Below, one piece after another: positions 16,137-28,255 of a stretch of DNA of 64,000 nucleotides. A program made the position numbers and the translations under genes. This DNA is from Escherichia coli (GTDB taxonomy: Bacteria > Pseudomonadota > Gammaproteobacteria > Enterobacterales > Enterobacteriaceae), in NCBI RefSeq assembly GCF_003334305.1, contig NZ_QOWS01000021.1, one strand, 5' to 3'. Position 1 is the first letter of the stretch; each line of letters opens with the position of its first letter. Below the pieces are notes generated by a model. It was not told the origin of the DNA. It was given only the letters and a program-made list of their open reading frames with translations, and did no database searches.

Positions 16137-16514
16137 ATGACCAACAAAGAAAACAAAGATAAATATATTAACAAGTTCAAGAAAGAGCTTTCAAAATATA
16201 TACAACCAACTGCTGGAGTGGACATTCAATTATTTAACTCTAAGGATGGTGGTGGTGTAATTAAAGCCACTTTGAATAGAAGTGGAAAAAGAAAATCATC
16301 TATTGCAGGTAATTTTACTAAATTAGGTGAGGCAATTACCTCGAGTGGGCAGAGGGTTTTTGGTGGTGATCTATCAAATGTAAATTTTTACGGAACAAAT
16401 ACGATTTTTGATGGAGATACAATATTTTTAATTAAATCACCTGATTCAGAGGAGTGGTCATCACAAAAAGCTTCCAAAGACGTAGAGGGCATCGTATTTG
16501 GAGGGAAAAAATGA
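16137..16514 (+). CDS. Hypothetical soluble protein (125 aa), moron gene 1
   Basis: ORF MTNKENKDKYINKFKKELSKYIQPTAGVDIQLFNSKDGGGVIKATLNRSGKRK...; AT-rich; opposite strand to neighbours; stop overlaps next gene start (ATGA); no family recognised. Confidence 0.55.
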   Translation: MTNKENKDKYINKFKKELSKYIQPTAGVDIQLFNSKDGGGVIKATLNRSGKRKSSIAGNFTKLGEAITSSGQRVFGGDLSNVNFYGTNTIFDGDTIFLIKSPDSEEWSSQKASKDVEGIVFGGKK

Positions 16515-16939
16515 TTAACATTACTACTAAGGATGGCACTCAAGTCAGTGGTGAAGTAAGAGATCTAGTAATTCTTCTTGAAACTGATGGAAAAACGGTG
16601 TCTGATTATTTGCAGCCAATCCCTCCCAAAAAAGATACACACTGGAGCATGATTTTCATTCCGGTAGCAATTTATATACTACTTAATCTTGTATACATTA
16701 TTGCTCACCCATTATTTCCTGAAAAATATCTAAAAACATCAACATCTATATTTCTATTCATTTCCTTCATATTAAGTGCAATAGTAGCATATTTTGTTTT
16801 CCATAAGCATAAATCTGCCACTCTATCCATATGCAGCTTAGTGTTCTTAGTGTTAATTGTAGGTGCTAACGTAGGGTTTATCAGTTACAGCGACCTAACA
16901 CAAAAAGCGACGCAAAAATTAGATAGTTTGTCTAAATAA
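16511..16939 (+). CDS. Hypothetical membrane protein (142 aa, three predicted TM helices), moron gene 2
   Basis: ATG at 16511 preceded by GGAGGG SD; MINITTKDGTQVSGEVRDLVILLETDGK... then hydrophobic segments WSMIFIPVAIYILLNLVYIIAHPLF, IFLFISFILSAIVAYFVF, LSICSLVFLVLIVGANVGFISY. Confidence 0.6.
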   Translation: MINITTKDGTQVSGEVRDLVILLETDGKTVSDYLQPIPPKKDTHWSMIFIPVAIYILLNLVYIIAHPLFPEKYLKTSTSIFLFISFILSAIVAYFVFHKHKSATLSICSLVFLVLIVGANVGFISYSDLTQKATQKLDSLSK

Positions 16940-19289: not shown

Positions 19290-19313
19290 TGCCTTATCAG
19301 TTAACGCCGCAGT

Positions 19314-19541
19314 TTAGGCGGCAGAATTACTCGCGTTAAACAATGGTGCGAGGTCGGGACGAATATCTGCTGGTTTAATCTTTCCACCAGTGGCTGAGAC
19401 AATTTTCATTACATAGCGGGCATCAATTCCGCCACCGTGTAGCCAACGCCAAACTGTGGGTTGGGCTACACCGCATAGATCTGCCAGTCGTTTTTGACTA
19501 CCTGTAATACTGATTGCGAGTTGAATGGTTTGATTTGTCAT
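19314..19541 (-). CDS. Cro-like HTH repressor (YdaS/Cro family)
   Basis: ORF 19314..19547 (TTG) trimmed to ATG at 19541: MTNQTIQLAISITGSQKRLADLCGVAQPTVWRWLHGGG...; divergent from cI; AGGA SD. Confidence 0.75.
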   Translation of the reverse strand: MTNQTIQLAISITGSQKRLADLCGVAQPTVWRWLHGGGIDARYVMKIVSATGGKIKPADIRPDLAPLFNASNSAA

Positions 19542-19572
19542 TATCAATTCCTATTGGTATTGCAATGAATGA

Positions 19573-19615: not shown

Positions 19616-19643
19616 TTGACCATCAATACGCAAGCGTATAAAT
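19616..19643 (+). promoter_or_regulatory. Candidate PRM promoter (-35 TTGACC, -10 TATAAAT region) giving a leaderless or near-leaderless cI mRNA
   Basis: ttgacc at 19616..19621 and tataaat at 19637..19643; cI ATG at 19652 has no SD, as for lambda PRM/cI. Confidence 0.45.
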
Positions 19644-19651
19644 TAAAACTT

Positions 19652-20344
19652 ATGAAAAAAGAAACTCTTGCTGATCGCTTAAATCTAGCGATGGAACAAT
19701 CTGGAATGTCTCAAGGCGCTCTTGCAAAGGCGTCTGGCGTAGCTCAACCCACAATCTGGAGACTGACAAGCGGCAACGCGCGCGGCTCAACAAAAATTGT
19801 TGAAATAGCTAATGCATTGGGTGTTCGAACAGAATGGCTCTCTTCAGGCATAGGCCCGATGAGAAATGACGGTCAACAATCAGGGAAGCCTGCTGTCAGC
19901 CATTCCAAATACTTCAAAATTGACGTTCTTGATATAGAAGTCAGTGCCGGGCCGGGTGTAATCAACCGTGAGTTTGTAGAAGTTCTACGCTCGGTTGAAT
20001 ACTCGTTTGACGATGCTCGTCACATGTTCGATGGCAGGAAGGCGGAAAATATCCGCATCATTAACGTGCGTGGTGACAGCATGTCAGGAACGATCGAACC
20101 AGGTGATCTGCTGTTCGTTGATATCACGGTTAAATCTTTCGACGGTGATGGTATCTATGCGTTTCTGTATGACGACACCGCCCATGTAAAACGCCTGCAA
20201 ATGATGAAGGATAAGCTGCTGGTTATCTCTGATAACAAGAGCTACTCACCGTGGGACCCGATCGAGAAAGACGAGATGAACCGCGTGTTCATCTTCGGGA
20301 AAGTCATCGGGAGCATGCCGCAGACATATAGAAAGCATGGGTAG
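19652..20344 (+). CDS. cI: CI-type prophage repressor (N-terminal HTH, C-terminal S24 LexA-like autopeptidase)
   Basis: ORF 19616..20344 trimmed to ATG 19652: MKKETLADRLNLAMEQSGMSQGALAKASGVAQPTIWRL... and C-terminal ...VRGDSMSGTIEPGDLLFVD...HVKRLQ (Ser/Lys dyad motifs). Confidence 0.88.
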   Translation: MKKETLADRLNLAMEQSGMSQGALAKASGVAQPTIWRLTSGNARGSTKIVEIANALGVRTEWLSSGIGPMRNDGQQSGKPAVSHSKYFKIDVLDIEVSAGPGVINREFVEVLRSVEYSFDDARHMFDGRKAENIRIINVRGDSMSGTIEPGDLLFVDITVKSFDGDGIYAFLYDDTAHVKRLQMMKDKLLVISDNKSYSPWDPIEKDEMNRVFIFGKVIGSMPQTYRKHG

Positions 20345-20473: not shown

Positions 20474-21613
20474 ATGGCAGCGGTTGAATTTCAATTGTCT
20501 AGGAAGATGATTGATTGGATAGCAAATTCTCAAGGAGTTTCTATCGAAACTCTTGCTGACCAAGTCATGCCCAAAAAGATTAATAAATTTCTTAACGGAG
20601 TGGTAAGTAAATCCGCAGCAGAAAAACTGGCAAAAATTGGAGGAATCCCTTTCGGTTTTTTATTTCTTGAAACGCCACCAACTCCAGCCAAACCCAAGAT
20701 CCCTGACTTAAGGCAAGCTATAAATAGCCGTGAGTTAGGAAAAGATTTTTTTGATGTTTACTATGATATAGAATATAAACTTGAGTGGTACAAAGACTAT
20801 TTAAGAGAAAATGGTAATGATGATCCACTCGATTTTATTGGTAAATTTAAATTTAATAGAAAATTAAATTATAAGGTTGTTGCTACAGACATAGCAAACA
20901 CAATACATTTTGATATACAAAAAGAGATAAAAAATGTCACTTTTGAGAGCTATTTTTCTAAAGTGGCAAAACTAATAGAAGACACTGGCGTATTAGTTTT
21001 CAAGAATGGTGTTGTGGGTAATAATAATAAAAGAAAACTTGACACGCGAGAGTTTCGTGGTTTCTGTATATCTGATAGCGTTGCTCCGATCATTTTTGTA
21101 AATAGCTCGGACGCGTTATCTGCGCAGGTATTTACATTATTTCATGAGGTGGCTCATCTTTGGCTTGGAGTCGATGGAGTCTCTGGGTGGGACACAGAAA
21201 AAAACATAGAATCTTTTTGTAATAAAGTTGCTGCTGAAATCTTAATGCCTGATAATCTCTTCAAATCTTTCTGGCTTAATGCATCCAGCGATAATAATTA
21301 TTATCGAGTAAAAGAGGTTTCTAAGTTATTTAAGGTTAGTGATTTCGCTTGTGCAATCAAAGCGTTACAATTAGATTTGATAGAAAGAAACACTTTGGAG
21401 ATAATTAAAGATCAAGCTTACAATAAGCCCAAAAAAGAATCCAATGGTGGTTCTTTCTTTAACACATTACCTGTTCGTAACAGTCCAAAACTTACGAATA
21501 TAATAATTTCCAAAGCAATGTCTCAACAATTACCATTAAGGGAAGCAGGCGTACTGCTAAATGTAAAAGCAGATACAGTTGTTGAATTTTATAAAAAACG
21601 AGAATCTCTATGA
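20474..21613 (+). CDS. HTH (XRE-like) domain fused to ImmA/IrrE-family zinc metallopeptidase (COG2856/DUF955-like), 379 aa
   Basis: AGGTGA SD 4 nt upstream; N-terminal HTH-like segment (SIETLADQVMPKKINKFLNG...AEKLAKIGGIP); HExxH motif in FTLFHEVAHLWLG and downstream E...AAEILMP motif typical of ImmA/IrrE peptidases; AT-rich. Confidence 0.75.
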   Translation: MAAVEFQLSRKMIDWIANSQGVSIETLADQVMPKKINKFLNGVVSKSAAEKLAKIGGIPFGFLFLETPPTPAKPKIPDLRQAINSRELGKDFFDVYYDIEYKLEWYKDYLRENGNDDPLDFIGKFKFNRKLNYKVVATDIANTIHFDIQKEIKNVTFESYFSKVAKLIEDTGVLVFKNGVVGNNNKRKLDTREFRGFCISDSVAPIIFVNSSDALSAQVFTLFHEVAHLWLGVDGVSGWDTEKNIESFCNKVAAEILMPDNLFKSFWLNASSDNNYYRVKEVSKLFKVSDFACAIKALQLDLIERNTLEIIKDQAYNKPKKESNGGSFFNTLPVRNSPKLTNIIISKAMSQQLPLREAGVLLNVKADTVVEFYKKRESL

Positions 21614-22122
21614 TTCATAATGGAAAATTCTTAATTGATAGTAATGTCTTCATAGAGGCAAAAAACTTTGCATATAACTTCAATTATTGCAAAATATTTT
21701 GGGATTTTCTTCTCGCTTTACACATTAATGGTCTGATTTATAGCATTAATGCTGTAAAAAAAGAACTATGTGCAAAAGATGATCCATTGTGTAAATGGAT
21801 TAAAGAAGAGTTACCATCATCATTCTTCGAAGATGAGCATAGTTCAATAGAAAATTATGCAAAGTTAATAAATTGGTCAACTAAATTAGATGTTACCGAA
21901 AAGGCAAAGTTTGATTTTGCAAGCCATGAAAAAGCAGATGCTTTTTTAATAGCCCATGCGATGACACATGGATATACTATTATTACCCATGAGAAACCAT
22001 CCGGTGGCAAACCTAAAAAAAGAATAATGATCCCGGATGCTGCTGCTTCTCACGGCGTTAAGACATTAACACTATATGAATTTCTTCCAAGATACGCTAG
22101 TCATAATTTTTCTTTGAAATAA
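21610..22122 (+). CDS. PIN-like (DUF4411-type) putative nuclease, 170 aa
   Basis: Start overlaps upstream stop (ATGA); N-terminal FLIDSNVFIEA resembles the first acidic PIN strand; ADAFLIAHAMTHGYTIITHEK resembles a later PIN motif; AT-rich; domain call from memory of DUF4411. Confidence 0.65.
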   Translation: MIHNGKFLIDSNVFIEAKNFAYNFNYCKIFWDFLLALHINGLIYSINAVKKELCAKDDPLCKWIKEELPSSFFEDEHSSIENYAKLINWSTKLDVTEKAKFDFASHEKADAFLIAHAMTHGYTIITHEKPSGGKPKKRIMIPDAAASHGVKTLTLYEFLPRYASHNFSLK

Positions 22123-22127
22123 AACGT

Positions 22128-22154
22128 CCCGGCCACCGTGCCGGGTTTTCTTTT
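22128..22154 (+). terminator. Rho-independent terminator after the two-gene cassette
   Basis: cccggccaccgtgccggg hairpin followed by ttttctttt immediately after the stop at 22122. Confidence 0.75.
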
Positions 22155-22276
22155 GCCTCCCCTCATCACACACACCGTTCAAAAAACCACCACAACCCCG
22201 CTTCAGTTATCGCTATGCGATGCAAGTCACAAAATTAATTCTTTTTGCTATCAAATATTTAATATCAAAACACATC

Positions 22277-22323
22277 TAGCAATAGCAATAAGTATTGATA
22301 TCATCAATAGCAATAGCTATTAT
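22277..22323 (+). promoter_or_regulatory. Candidate PL promoter (-35 TTGATA, 17-bp spacer, -10 TATTAT) with OL operator repeats
   Basis: ttgata tcatcaatagcaatagc tattat at 22295..22323; AGCAATAGCAAT repeats shared with the cro-cI intergenic region. Confidence 0.6.
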
Positions 22324-22396
22324 CACCATGTCGCAACAACACAACGATACGGCAATCACCTGATTCACCGTTGCGATGACCGCTTAGATCCGCAGC

Positions 22397-22807
22397 TTGA
22401 ATTTCAGCAGGCTCCGGGGAGTGCGAGGGGTGAAGCGGACGCGTGAACGTCGGTGTGACCAGCTGAAATCAACTCAACACTTCATACCTCAGTCGCTTCA
22501 ACGAGGCGGCTTAGTTATGACAACCGGCGGCCATCCACCGCCTGAATACGCGCAGAAGTCTTTATATGTTCAGCAGCCCAGCTTACGGGCAGGAGTTTTT
22601 ATGGTTCATCAACATTACGGAACGCAGACCGTTAATCGCGGTGCGGTCATGCCAGGAATGCTGGTCAAACACAAAGATGGTACCTGGACTGCATCAGCTA
22701 ATTTACGCGGACGGCTTTATCTGCATCGCGGCATCGAGCGCACTTATACCCGTGATTTGCTCGTAGAAGTTTTTCTCGACGGACGCGGTAACGGCCTGAA
22801 TCACTAA
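22397..22807 (+). CDS. Hypothetical protein, first ORF of PL operon (Arg-rich N-terminus; possible N-like or Kil/CIII-region protein)
   Basis: ORF with TTG start; N-terminus ...RLRGVRGVKRTRERR...; no confident homology recalled. Confidence 0.3.
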   Translation: MNFSRLRGVRGVKRTRERRCDQLKSTQHFIPQSLQRGGLVMTTGGHPPPEYAQKSLYVQQPSLRAGVFMVHQHYGTQTVNRGAVMPGMLVKHKDGTWTASANLRGRLYLHRGIERTYTRDLLVEVFLDGRGNGLNH

Positions 22808-22883
22808 CCCCCCTTTCCTGTTTTCCTAATCAGCCTGGCATTTCGCAGGCGATATTTTCACAGCCATTTTCAGGAGTTCAGCC

Positions 22884-23180
22884 ATGAACGCTTATTACAT
22901 TCAGGATCGTCTTGAGGCTCAGAGCTGGGCACGTCACTACCAGCAGATCGCCCGTGAAGAGAAAGAGGCAGAACTGGCAGACGACATGGAAAAAGGTCTT
23001 CCACAGCACCTGTTTGAATCACTCTGTATCGATCATTTGCAACGCTGCGGGGCCAGCAAAAAAGCCATTACCCGTGCGTTTGATGACGATGTTGAGTTTC
23101 AGGAGCGCATGGCAGAACACATCCGGTACATGGTTGAAACCATTGCTCACCACCAGTTTGATATTGATTCAGAGGTATAA
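22884..23180 (+). CDS. gam: Gam (RecBCD inhibitor), short form
   Basis: 98 aa [52 protein letters not shown]...; matches lambda Gam; upstream in-frame sequence also resembles the long-form N-terminus. Confidence 0.92.
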
Positions 23181-23185
23181 AACGG

Positions 23186-23971
23186 ATGAGTACAGCACTC
23201 GCAACGCTGGCAGGAAAGCTGGCTGAACGTGTCGGCATGGATTCTGTCGACCCACAGGAACTGATCACCACTCTTCGCCAGACGGCATTTAAAGGTGATG
23301 CCAGCGATGCGCAGTTCATCGCATTGTTGATCGTCGCCAACCAGTACGGCCTTAATCCGTGGACGAAAGAAATTTACGCCTTCCCTGATAAGCAGAACGG
23401 CATCGTTCCGGTGGTGGGCGTTGATGGCTGGTCCCGCATCATCAATGAAAACCAGCAGTTTGATGGCATGGACTTTGAGCAGGACAATGAATCCTGTACA
23501 TGCCGGATTTACCGCAAGGACCGTAATCATCCGATCTGCGTTACCGAATGGATGGATGAATGCCGCCGCGAACCATTCAAAACTCGCGAAGGCAGAGAAA
23601 TCACGGGGCCGTGGCAGTCGCATCCCAAACGGATGTTACGGCATAAAGCCATGATTCAGTGTGCCCGTCTGGCCTTCGGATTTGCTGGTATCTATGACAA
23701 TGATGAAGCCGAGCGCATTGTCGAAAATACTGCATACACTGCAGAACGTCAGCCAGAACGCGACATCACTCCGGTTAACGATGAAACCATGCAGGAGATT
23801 AACACTCTGCTGATCGCCCTGGATAAAACATGGGATGACGACTTATTGCCGCTCTGTTCCCAGATATTTCGCCGCGACATTCGCGCATCGTCAGAACTGA
23901 CACAGGCCGAAGCAGTGAAAGCTCTTGGATTCCTGAAACAGAAAGCCACTGAGCAGAAGGTGGCAGCATGA
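23186..23971 (+). CDS. bet: Bet (Red-beta single-strand annealing protein)
   Basis: 261 aa [48 protein letters not shown]...; matches lambda Bet. Confidence 0.93.
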
Positions 23972-25289: not shown

Positions 25290-25381
25290 AAAGCAAAATC
25301 ATCAGGGAGCTACAGGCTCCTTTTTTATTGTTCGCATTCATCCTCAAGCGTATTAACCAACAATTCAGGGATTAATGGAAG

Positions 25382-25926: not shown

Positions 25927-26269
25927 GGCCTGTCAGTTTCTTAAGATATCCAGACCAACCGCCACCAACTGGATACGAACAGGCCGCCTACAGGCAACAC
26001 GTAAAGATCCAACCAAGCCAAAATCTCCTTACCTCACAACACGGCAAGCCTGCATTGCGGCGCTTCAGTCTCCGCTGCATACTGTCCAGGTGAGCGCGGG
26101 TGATGGCATAACAGAGGAAAGAAAATGTCACTCTTCCGCAGAAATGAAATATGGTATGCCTCGTATTCGCTCCCGGGCGGGAAACGAATTAAGGAATCTC
26201 TTGGCACAAAGGACAAGCGGCAAGCTCAGGAGTTGCACGACAAGCGAAAAGCAGAACTCTGGCGAGTAG
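25898..26269 (+). CDS. Excisionase-like protein (Xis/AlpA-type HTH); reading frame continues into int
   Basis: [38 protein letters not shown]... directly upstream of int; unusually long overlap with int (about 145 nt), so 3' end uncertain. Confidence 0.45.
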
Positions 26270-27288
26270 AAAAGCTAGGGGATTTACCTGATGTCACTTT
26301 TGAAGAGGCCTGCCTAAGATGGCTTGAGGAAAAAGCTGATAAAAAATCTCTCGATTCAGATAAAAGCCGGATTGAGTTCTGGCTTGAACATTTTGAGGGT
26401 ATAAGGCTTAAAGATATCTCGGAGGCAAAGATTTACTCTGCTGTAAGCAGAATGCATAACAGAAAGACGAAAGAAATATGGAAACAGAAAGTTCAGGCCG
26501 CCATCAGGAAAGGTAAAGAACTGCCTGTTTATGAACCAAAGCCAGTATCAACTCAGACAAAGGCAAAGCATCTTGCCATGATAAAGGCCATTCTCCGTGC
26601 TGCAGAACGCGACTGGAAGTGGCTGGAAAAAGCGCCTGTCATCAAGATACCAGCGGTCAGAAACAAGCGAGTCAGATGGCTGGAAAAGGAGGAAGCAAAA
26701 CGCCTTATTGATGAGTGCCCCGAACCACTGAAATCTGTCGTCAAGTTTGCGCTGGCAACTGGTCTGAGAAAGTCGAACATCATAAATCTGGAATGGCAAC
26801 AAATCGACATGCAGCGACGAGTTGCCTGGGTGAATCCAGAAGAGAGCAAATCAAACCGCGCCATTGGTGTGGCGCTGAACGATACCGCCTGTAAAGTGTT
26901 GCGTGATCAAATAGGCAAGCATCACAAATGGGTGTTTGTACATACCAAGGCGGCTAAGCGAGCAGATGGAACATCAACGCCTGCGGTCAGGAAGATGCGC
27001 ATCGACAGCAAGACATCATGGCTATCAGCTTGTCGTCGTGCAGGAATTGAAGATTTCCGTTTCCATGACCTCAGACACACCTGGGCAAGCTGGCTGATTC
27101 AGTCAGGCGTCCCATTATCAGTGCTTCAGGAAATGGGCGGATGGGAGTCCATAGAAATGGTTCGTAGGTATGCTCACCTTGCGCCTAATCATTTGACAGA
27201 GCATGCGAGGAAAATAGACGACATTTTTGGTGATAATGTCCCAAATATGTCCCACTCTGGAATTATGGAGGATATAAAGAAGGCGTAA
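26125..27288 (+). CDS. intD: Tyrosine integrase (IntD/DLP12 type)
   Basis: 387 aa [38 protein letters not shown]... with C-terminal ...[16 protein letters not shown]...RRYAHL catalytic motifs; adjacent to tRNA-Arg. Confidence 0.92.
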
Positions 27289-27303: not shown

Positions 27304-27380
27304 TGGCGCGCCCTGCAGGATTCGAACCTGCGGCCCACGACTTAGAAGGTCGTTGCTCTATCCAACTGAGCTAAGGGCGC
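27304..27380 (-). tRNA. argU: tRNA-Arg (anticodon UCU), argU
   Basis: Reverse complement GCGCCCTTAGCTCAGTTGGATAGAGCAACGACCTTCTAAGTCGTGGGCCGCAGGTTCGAATCCTGCAGGGCGCGCCA; cloverleaf-compatible, ends CCA. Confidence 0.93.
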
Positions 27381-27622
27381 GTTGATACCGCAATGCGGTG
27401 TAATCGCGTGAATTATACGGTCAACCCTTGCTGAGTCAATGGCTTTTGATCTGGTTGCTGAACAAGTGAACGACCGCGTCTGATTTTCTGATTTATTTCG
27501 CTATAGCGGCAAACAAACACACACCGCTGCGCGTCTGAATCAAGAAAACCCGTATTTTCATGTATCAAAGTACAATTTACCGCCCTAACGGAAAATTGTC
27601 CGCTCCTATGAGACTGGTAACT

Positions 27623-28255
27623 ATGAAACCAACGTCGGTGATCATTATGGATACTCATCCTATCATCAGAATGTCTATTGAAGTTCTGTTGCAAAAAAAC
27701 AGTGAATTGCAGATTGTCCTGAAAACGGATGATTACCGCATAACCATCGATTATCTCCGAACCCGTCCTGTTGATTTAATCATTATGGATATAGACTTGC
27801 CCGGAACAGACGGTTTTACCTTCCTGAAAAGGATCAAACAAATCCAGAGCACAGTGAAAGTGTTATTTTTATCATCGAAATCAGAATGCTTTTATGCTGG
27901 CAGAGCGATACAAGCTGGTGCTAACGGTTTTGTCAGTAAATGCAATGATCAGAATGATATTTTTCATGCCGTTCAGATGATCCTCTCCGGATACACGTTT
28001 TTTCCCAGCGAAACGCTTAACTATATAAAAAGCAATAAATGTAGTACGAATAGTTCAACGGTCACTGTACTATCTAATCGTGAAGTGACCATATTACGTT
28101 ATCTGGTTAGCGGATTATCTAATAAAGAAATTGCCGATAAGTTATTACTTAGCAATAAAACAGTTAGTGCGCATAAATCTAATATTTATGGCAAGCTAGG
28201 TTTGCATTCAATTGTAGAACTTATCGACTACGCCAAATTATACGAATTAATATAA
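27623..28255 (+). CDS. fimZ: Fimbrial response regulator FimZ (LuxR-type)
   Basis: ORF 27560..28255 trimmed to MKPTSVIIMDTHPIIRMSIEVLLQKNSEL...; 210 aa. Confidence 0.9.
   Translation: MKPTSVIIMDTHPIIRMSIEVLLQKNSELQIVLKTDDYRITIDYLRTRPVDLIIMDIDLPGTDGFTFLKRIKQIQSTVKVLFLSSKSECFYAGRAIQAGANGFVSKCNDQNDIFHAVQMILSGYTFFPSETLNYIKSNKCSTNSSTVTVLSNREVTILRYLVSGLSNKEIADKLLLSNKTVSAHKSNIYGKLGLHSIVELIDYAKLYELI

Follow-up and report, generated by a model that had tools for sequence, protein, structure and literature searches.

The 64,000-nt stretch of Escherichia coli DNA analyzed here (the window) carries a lambdoid prophage, in which early operons on both the plus and the minus strand were identified. On the plus strand, cI (19616-20344) is followed by two cargo genes (20474-22122), a terminator 3′ of these genes (22128-22145), and then the OL/PL region, after which come kil, gam (starting at 22884), bet, exo, further genes, and int (26125-27288). 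A tRNA-Arg(TCT) (27304-27380) lies 3′ of int. The gene beyond this tRNA (27560-28255) is presumably fimZ; if so, the prophage occupies the argU site, that of DLP12 in K-12. The minus strand carries cro (19314-19547), a cII-like gene, O, P, the nin region, and a Q-like antiterminator gene (13999-14397).

The two cargo genes between cI and PL stand at the position of rexAB. The first encodes a 379-aa HTH/metalloprotease-like protein (phrog_2439, phrog_87), and the second a 170-aa protein whose function is not known (phrog_11126). At the same place, relatives carry GevT/GevA (PhiR47_2), an ASCH-domain protein (4A7), or a transmembrane protein (Perceval); the position looks like a variable, defence-type hotspot. 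The PR operon also has peculiarities. The gap between cro and the cII-like gene is only 24 nt (19290-19313), too short for nutR or tR1, and the classical first terminator seems to be absent from this operon. Furthermore, two plus-strand genes (phrog_18061 and phrog_16940; 16137-16939) sit reversed between P and ninB, so that Q is reached from PR only by antisense transcription across both.

The PL promoter is a sigma-70-like site on the plus strand, within the immunity-specific operator region (-35 TTGATA, 22295-22300; 17-nt spacer; -10 TATTAT, 22318-22323). A promoter scan returned this element (22295-22323) as the sole promoter-like site within 21900-23300. Phage alignment showed that the sequence upstream of ~22328 varies by immunity type and that homologous sequence begins again precisely where PL transcription is predicted to start. 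The first-pass annotation had placed about 550 bp between the candidate PL and gam, and the distance to the gam ATG at 22884 is indeed about 555 bp. This interval comprises a structured leader RNA (22328-22462), followed by a kil leader (22482-22600) and kil (22601-22807). A weak terminator-like hairpin on the plus strand (22833-22860; 5-bp stem, tail GATATTTTCA) lies between kil and gam. Farther inside the PL operon, an intrinsic-terminator-like site on the same strand (25304-25330; 8-bp stem and T run, fold z -2.6) is located upstream of a traR-like gene, xis, and int.

The sole long plus-strand ORF of the interval is, as described before, 22397-22807, with a TTG start, 136 aa, and the stretch KRTRERR at residues 13-19. 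This ORF is a composite of three unrelated pieces that are in frame by chance. Residues 1-40, KRTRERR included, fall in the noncoding RNA; residues 41-68 are part of a small upstream ORF (ATG 22517, MTTGGHPPP...); and residues 69-136 are Kil, a 68-aa KilR-type FtsZ inhibitor encoded on the plus strand at 22601-22807, with its ATG at 22601 and the SD AGGAG 5 nt upstream. The profile phrog_294 matches Kil across residues 1-68 (E 1.3e-37), and NCBIfam NF008465 aligns residues 1-68 with profile positions 1-70 of 73 (E 2e-17). Since the latter score, 63 bits, is below the curated cutoff of 92, Kil here is a relative rather than the equivalog. Kil is annotated at this place in 4A7 and in most related records. 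The last 68 codons of the ORF thus match Rac KilR and phage Kil over the full length; unlike these, kil in the window has a small upstream ORF fused to it in frame by chance.

The kil leader module (22482-22600, plus strand) contains a long hairpin at 22482-22520 and a second, GC hairpin at 22526-22542; the fold has z -2.6. The kil-leader hairpin (UCAUACC...GGCUUAGUUAUGA) buries the AUG of the upstream ORF that starts at 22517; this ORF has a polyproline motif and, in this window, reads in frame into kil. The module (…TTCATACCT…) is common to several lambdoid phages: homologous kil leaders lie 5′ of kil in phi80, HK639, HK225, CobraSix, and a Trabulsiella prophage. The hairpin shows covariation. 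A role of the kil leader in regulating the toxic kil, at translation or through Rho-dependent termination, is possible.

The first-pass annotation had reported no recognizable N antiterminator or nutL between PL and gam. Our searches confirm this, as neither an N homologue nor a boxA was found. With lambda N, phi80 N, and HK022 Nun as queries, tblastn gave only noise; PHROGs and NCBIfam returned Kil alone for the PL-gam ORF, and Pfam returned nothing, even at E≤10. The boxA pattern YGCTCTTWA, with one mismatch allowed, occurred 46 times in the window, against 45.8 expected by chance, and was missing from the PL leader (22328-22600). The early PR operon held a single one-mismatch match of chance level (16772-16780). 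A scan of the prophage for ORFs with an arginine-rich N-terminus gave no N candidate; it returned two proteins only, one small and basic and the other, we assume, YlcG-like. Moreover, none of the related phage records inspected has an annotated N gene. The prophage is therefore one without an N/nut system.

A put-type RNA was sought as well. The covariance model R1 was built from eight RNAs, namely putL and putR of HK022, putL and putR of phiEt88, and putL of CobraSix, HK639, PdC23, and S9-5. The put alignment itself covaries well. The model gave only chance matches in the window and none in the PL or PR leaders, the best match (E 0.15) lying within a structural-gene region. BLAST likewise detected no sequence similarity between the leader and HK022.

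The RNA that begins at PL is ~135 nt long (22328-22462, plus strand) and consists of a helix P1, two stem-loops P2 and P3, and three conserved blocks (GAUGACCGCUUAGA, GAGUGCGAGGGGU, and GUGACCAG), which are invariant in 15 sequences from three lineages. In P1, the extreme 5′ end of the transcript (22329-22337; UGUCGCAAC here, CAUCGCAAC in the commonest E. coli variant) pairs with 22370-22378 (GUUGCGAUG), of which CGAUG (22374-22378) is invariant. Elsewhere, the 5′ strand at the predicted +1 reads CAUCG (O157-type variant and Edwardsiella), CAUUGC (Trabulsiella), or CAUCACAAC. The intervening 18 to 42 nt are unrelated between lineages, and we estimate the chance that the pairing is kept with unrelated spacers at ~1e-6. 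RNAfold also gives P1 for L005 and the Edwardsiella sequences. P1 leads into block 1 (22379-22389; ACCGCUUAGAU), invariant in all 15 sequences, and then into the P2 hairpin (22390-22417), in which CCGCAGC (22390-22396) pairs with GCUCCGG (22411-22417) around a C.C mismatch (22393/22414). Block 2 (22418-22434; GGAGUGCGAGGGGUGAA) connects P2 to the P3 hairpin (22435-22454; GCGGACG, loop CGUGAA, CGUCGGU), the stretch that encodes KRTRERR, and block 3 (22455-22462), likewise invariant across lineages, ends the element. RNAalifold predicts two closing pairings between these blocks: CGC of block 1 (22381-22383) with GCG (22423-22425) and GGU of block 2 (22429-22431) with ACC (22458-22460). P3 retains a G.G mismatch and a GNRA tetraloop in all three lineages (GUGA in the window, GAGA and GGAA in the others).

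Covariation supports the helices, as the strands of both stem-loops differ among lineages while their pairing is kept. P2 is CCGCAGC/GCUCCGG in the window, CUACGA/UCGUAG in Trabulsiella, and UCACA/UGUGA in Edwardsiella; the corresponding P3 sequences are GCGGACG-CGUGAA-CGUCGGU, GUGUACG-UGAGAG-CGUAGGC, and ACGCAUG-UGGAAG-CAUGGGU. We tested 12 pairs in an alignment of 15 E. coli, Trabulsiella, and Edwardsiella sequences, which represent three independent lineages only, against 500 shuffles. Both sides changed in eight of the 12 pairs, and not one of the 500 shuffles reached the observed values. Overall, 92% of cells pair; sliding the partner lowers this figure to 12 to 56%. Specifically, compensatory changes across lineages affect five of the six outer pairs of P2, whereas in P3 they affect three of six, with 100% of cells pairing. 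RNAalifold independently recovered the same helices along with the closing pairs described above. The common E. coli polymorphisms are compatible with the fold: 22396 C/U keeps a wobble pair, 22414 C/U falls on the mismatch, and 22435 falls on a G.U/A-U pair. The G.U pairs are consistent with a reading of the plus strand only. Folded singly, the E. coli and Trabulsiella versions gain nothing in energy over shuffled sequences (z -0.8, +0.2, and +0.65), and the Edwardsiella version is the only one to reach z -2.05. These data establish the leader RNA as a conserved structured RNA.

A covariance model of the element core (R2) had one match in the 64 kb (22374-22464, 118 bits) and scored the Trabulsiella and Edwardsiella copies at 85 to 89 bits. 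No second copy was found in the PR operon or elsewhere in the window, and R2 had no match in HK022, HK639, HK225, phi80, CobraSix, phiEt88, PdC23, or ENT1. Of 5426 complete E. coli genomes, 2210 (~40%) have the element, and carriers include prophages of pathogenic strains, O157:H7, O26, and O55 among them. Diverged copies turned up in pattern scans: a prophage of Trabulsiella odontotermitis (L060 = L158) has the element, as do Edwardsiella anguillarum and E. piscicida (L156, L167). In each of the three lineages, the element directly follows cI in a lambdoid cII-cro-cI arrangement, and the 5′ strand of P1 lies within about 3 nt of the predicted sigma-70 +1. Outside this phage group, the first ~155 nt had no relatives in the phage collection. 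Metagenome pattern scans found nothing related, scans of extra viral contigs found only the Trabulsiella copy and one close variant, and BLAST with the Trabulsiella element added no phage relatives.

Two variants of the 5′ segment are worth recording. In the O157:H7-type variant (the IMG/VR contig L022 and O157:H7 genomes), the core is 100% identical from 22364 onward and the 5′ segment is unrelated, yet it supplies CAUCG for pairing with CGAUG. In the E. coli-type element, the P1 loop (22334-22345) contains CAACAACACAAC, which is like CACAACA, the consensus bound by the GcvB sRNA seed (PMC4104026). Since CAACAACACAAC is missing from the O157-type, Trabulsiella, and Edwardsiella variants, this likeness could be a coincidence or a lineage-specific add-on. 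The CA-rich 5′ loop had also suggested identity with the anti-sRNA AgvB. This was dropped, as AgvB, 51 to 60 nt long, is encoded at the PR′ moron site rather than PL (PMC4104026) and has an Rfam family of its own. AsxR, another RNA of the PR′ moron site, was dropped as well; the leader RNA matched neither AgvB (RF02702) nor AsxR (RF02703).

The leader RNA is unannotated in the records inspected and lies outside Rfam 15. Covariance models of all Rfam 15 families, run over 22100-23000, returned no family even at E≤10. Nearly all of the genome matches listed have no feature under the element, and in some records over-long Kil or hypothetical-protein CDS calls cover it. The annotated put-like RNAs that we found in GenBank records (HK75, O276, and HK639) are all homologues of HK022 put, and the leader RNA is not. 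A full-text literature search for the motif sequences of the element retrieved no paper; the report of new put RNAs by King et al. (2011, J Bacteriol 193:5784) was not covered by this search. A survey has suggested that N-less lambdoid phages "may" use put-like mechanisms, although none was identified (PMC12315714). One apparent link to a known RNA was treated as coincidence. The 3′ half of the HK639 "putL-like antiterminator RNA" (L010 3070-3133) has the 9-mer TGCGAGGGG and ACCAGC in common with the element. This TGCGAGGGG stretch is the 5′-UTR module of HK639 gene 45 and is 97% identical to the 5′-UTR of the homologous gene in Enterobacter phage ENT1 (L178 1995-2055). As ENT1 has a phi80-type nutL leader and no put, the likeness between HK639 and the element is probably due to chance.

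The position of the leader RNA is informative when compared with other phages that share the kil-leader module. Between PL and this module, phi80 has nutL, N, and tL1A, and HK639 and CobraSix have putL, one or two genes, and terminators; in the window, only the leader RNA is there. The other phages have an intrinsic terminator, complete with T run, just 5′ of the shared module; the window lacks this terminator, and there the leader RNA runs straight into the module. The Trabulsiella prophage has, between the element and kil, an antisense gene and then a good intrinsic terminator (L060 5872-5890 + TTTTTT). The genes 3′ of the element differ completely among the three lineages, which indicates that no protein partner is linked to the RNA.

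The closest parallel is with put. Like putL and putR of HK022 and the putL-like RNA of HK639, the leader RNA lies directly 3′ of an early promoter in an N-less lambdoid phage. As in HK022 put, folding begins with the first bases of the transcript and produces irregular stem-loops with invariant unpaired residues. In contrast, there is no sequence similarity to put, the put model fails here, and R2 fails on the put phages HK022, HK639, CobraSix, phiEt88, and PdC23. The conserved motifs are also different, and the element is ~135 nt long, with P1 and two extended stem-loops, compared with ~70 nt for put. HK022 has both putL and putR, whereas the element is a single copy with none in the PR operon. 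HK639 resembles the window in this regard, as no putR match was found there (a putR BLAST did not list HK639, and its record annotates putL only). With nutL and N of lambda and phi80, the element shares the slot from PL to the kil-proximal module, and P3 loosely resembles lambda boxB as a short stem with a GNRA-type loop. It differs from these systems in having no boxA, N protein, or nutR, and the P3 loop is a true tetraloop, not a pentaloop. Other leader RNAs act in antitermination, such as the Bacillus EAR RNA, a structured leader that gives processivity to an operon. The concept is alike; the sequence and host are unrelated.

Because the leader RNA fills the slot of nutL-N in phi80 and of putL in HK639 and CobraSix, and because nothing else in the prophage could give early-left antitermination, we favor, with moderate confidence, the proposal that it is a cis-acting antiterminator, analogous but not homologous to put. 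Of the alternatives raised by the first-pass annotation, this corresponds to an N-independent mechanism; the favored status derives from a covariation-supported RNA in the nutL/N or putL slot, from which we infer function. In this proposal, the nascent RNA would act in cis on the very RNA polymerase from which it emerges. HK022 put RNA works in this way; it acts through the beta′ zinc-binding domain of the polymerase and suppresses terminators without protein factors. Left-operon terminators, both intrinsic and Rho-dependent, would then be read through by transcription from PL (one example is the 25304-25322 terminator before xis/int), and no phage-encoded N protein would be needed for this read-through. 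A need for antitermination is suggested by the terminator before kil in Trabulsiella and by the 25304-25322 terminator inside the operon of the window. Several observations weigh against the proposal. No strong terminator lies in the window between the element and kil, gam, bet, and exo; there is one copy, with none in the PR operon; the covariation comes from three independent lineages only; the fold energies of the E. coli and Trabulsiella sequences are unremarkable; put resembles the element neither in sequence nor by covariance model; and the long invariant segments are equally compatible with protein-binding sites.

The last of these observations bears on a different reading, namely that the RNA is an assembly site that recruits host factors (Nus or others) or a phage protein into a complex that modifies the polymerase, as a noncanonical nut-like site. 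Variable helices alternate with three long invariant blocks, an ACC motif follows a helix at two places, and P3, a short stem with a GNRA-type loop, is like boxB. Furthermore, atypical N-like systems at unusual gene positions exist, such as Gp17 of mEp021 (PMC11893012). On the other hand, boxA is absent, and R2 has no second match in the PR operon. No conserved N-like or arginine-rich small protein turned up either, and the genes downstream of the element, which differ in all three lineages, offer no linked partner. We regard an assembly site as unlikely.

An improbable reading to a similar degree is that the 5′ leader protects or tunes the PL message, through RNase stability, denial of Rho, or translation control, without conferring terminator resistance. 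P1 sequesters the extreme 5′ end, and sequestration of the 5′ end is a known route to mRNA stabilization. This reading also accommodates the absence of a strong terminator in the window before kil and gam, as well as the single copy in the left operon only. However, a simple 5′ hairpin would suffice for stability, and ~90 nt of invariant blocks together with two covarying irregular stem-loops, kept across genera, exceed that need. Besides, the Trabulsiella element has an antisense gene and a strong terminator downstream, as noted above.

A divergent N was the other possibility to consider for the arginine-rich stretch, which the first-pass annotation had compared to an N-type arginine-rich motif. 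Here, the ORF from GTG 22430 or TTG 22397 would yield an arginine-rich peptide that binds P3 as its boxB. In our reading, KRTRERR is like TRRRERRAEK of lambda N, and GGGGAG stands 8 nt before GTG 22430, which is ATG in some variants. We examined coding potential by tallying polymorphic sites by codon position in 84 unique close variants. The ratio was 12:9:6 in 22397-22516, compared with 6:9:21 in kil. Thus, third-position bias is absent upstream of kil. Neither is the frame conserved: indels or stops disrupt it in ~40% of close variants, and the frame from GTG 22430 is full length (122 to 125 codons) in only 48 of the 84 and 20 to 80 codons long in the other 36. In Trabulsiella and Edwardsiella, the codon at the GTG position is GUA, not a start, and stop codons or another frame occupy the place of KRTRERR; the local ORFs are short and unrelated. 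In addition, family searches match Kil only, and ~155 nt of unique sequence is too short for a 100-aa N. The arginine codons of KRTRERR coincide with both strands of helix P3; translation of this GC-rich hairpin creates the ARM-like peptide as an artefact. A divergent N/nut is hence very improbable, and the motif assignment does not stand.

The weakest reading, that the early-left region is degraded and the prophage not inducible, draws on the absence of the canonical regulator and is scarcely credible, since conservation of the element extends to covariation, the genes kil, gam, bet, and exo are all intact, and the PL-leader-kil-gam arrangement is 90 to 97% identical in deposited phage genomes (4A7 of the genus Bievrevirus, Perceval, the PhiR series, Turner, and others), several of whose records name E. 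coli C or K-12 as host.

The lack of N and nutL is therefore real and does not mark the prophage as defective. Whatever its function, the leader RNA is a covariation-supported and highly prevalent RNA motif without an Rfam match. To our knowledge, the put RNAs of HK022-like phages are the only RNAs that make E. coli RNA polymerase terminator resistant without a protein. Returning to the cis-acting antiterminator, we propose, somewhat more tentatively, that the leader RNA may represent a second, nonhomologous class of protein-independent antiterminator RNA, which would bind and reprogram E. coli RNA polymerase at the start of the PL operon. If this is true, an unrelated RNA with the same job would provide a second, independent view of how nascent RNA reprograms the elongation complex. 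It would also explain how the early-left program of recombination, excision, and kil is carried out in very common N-less lambdoid prophages.
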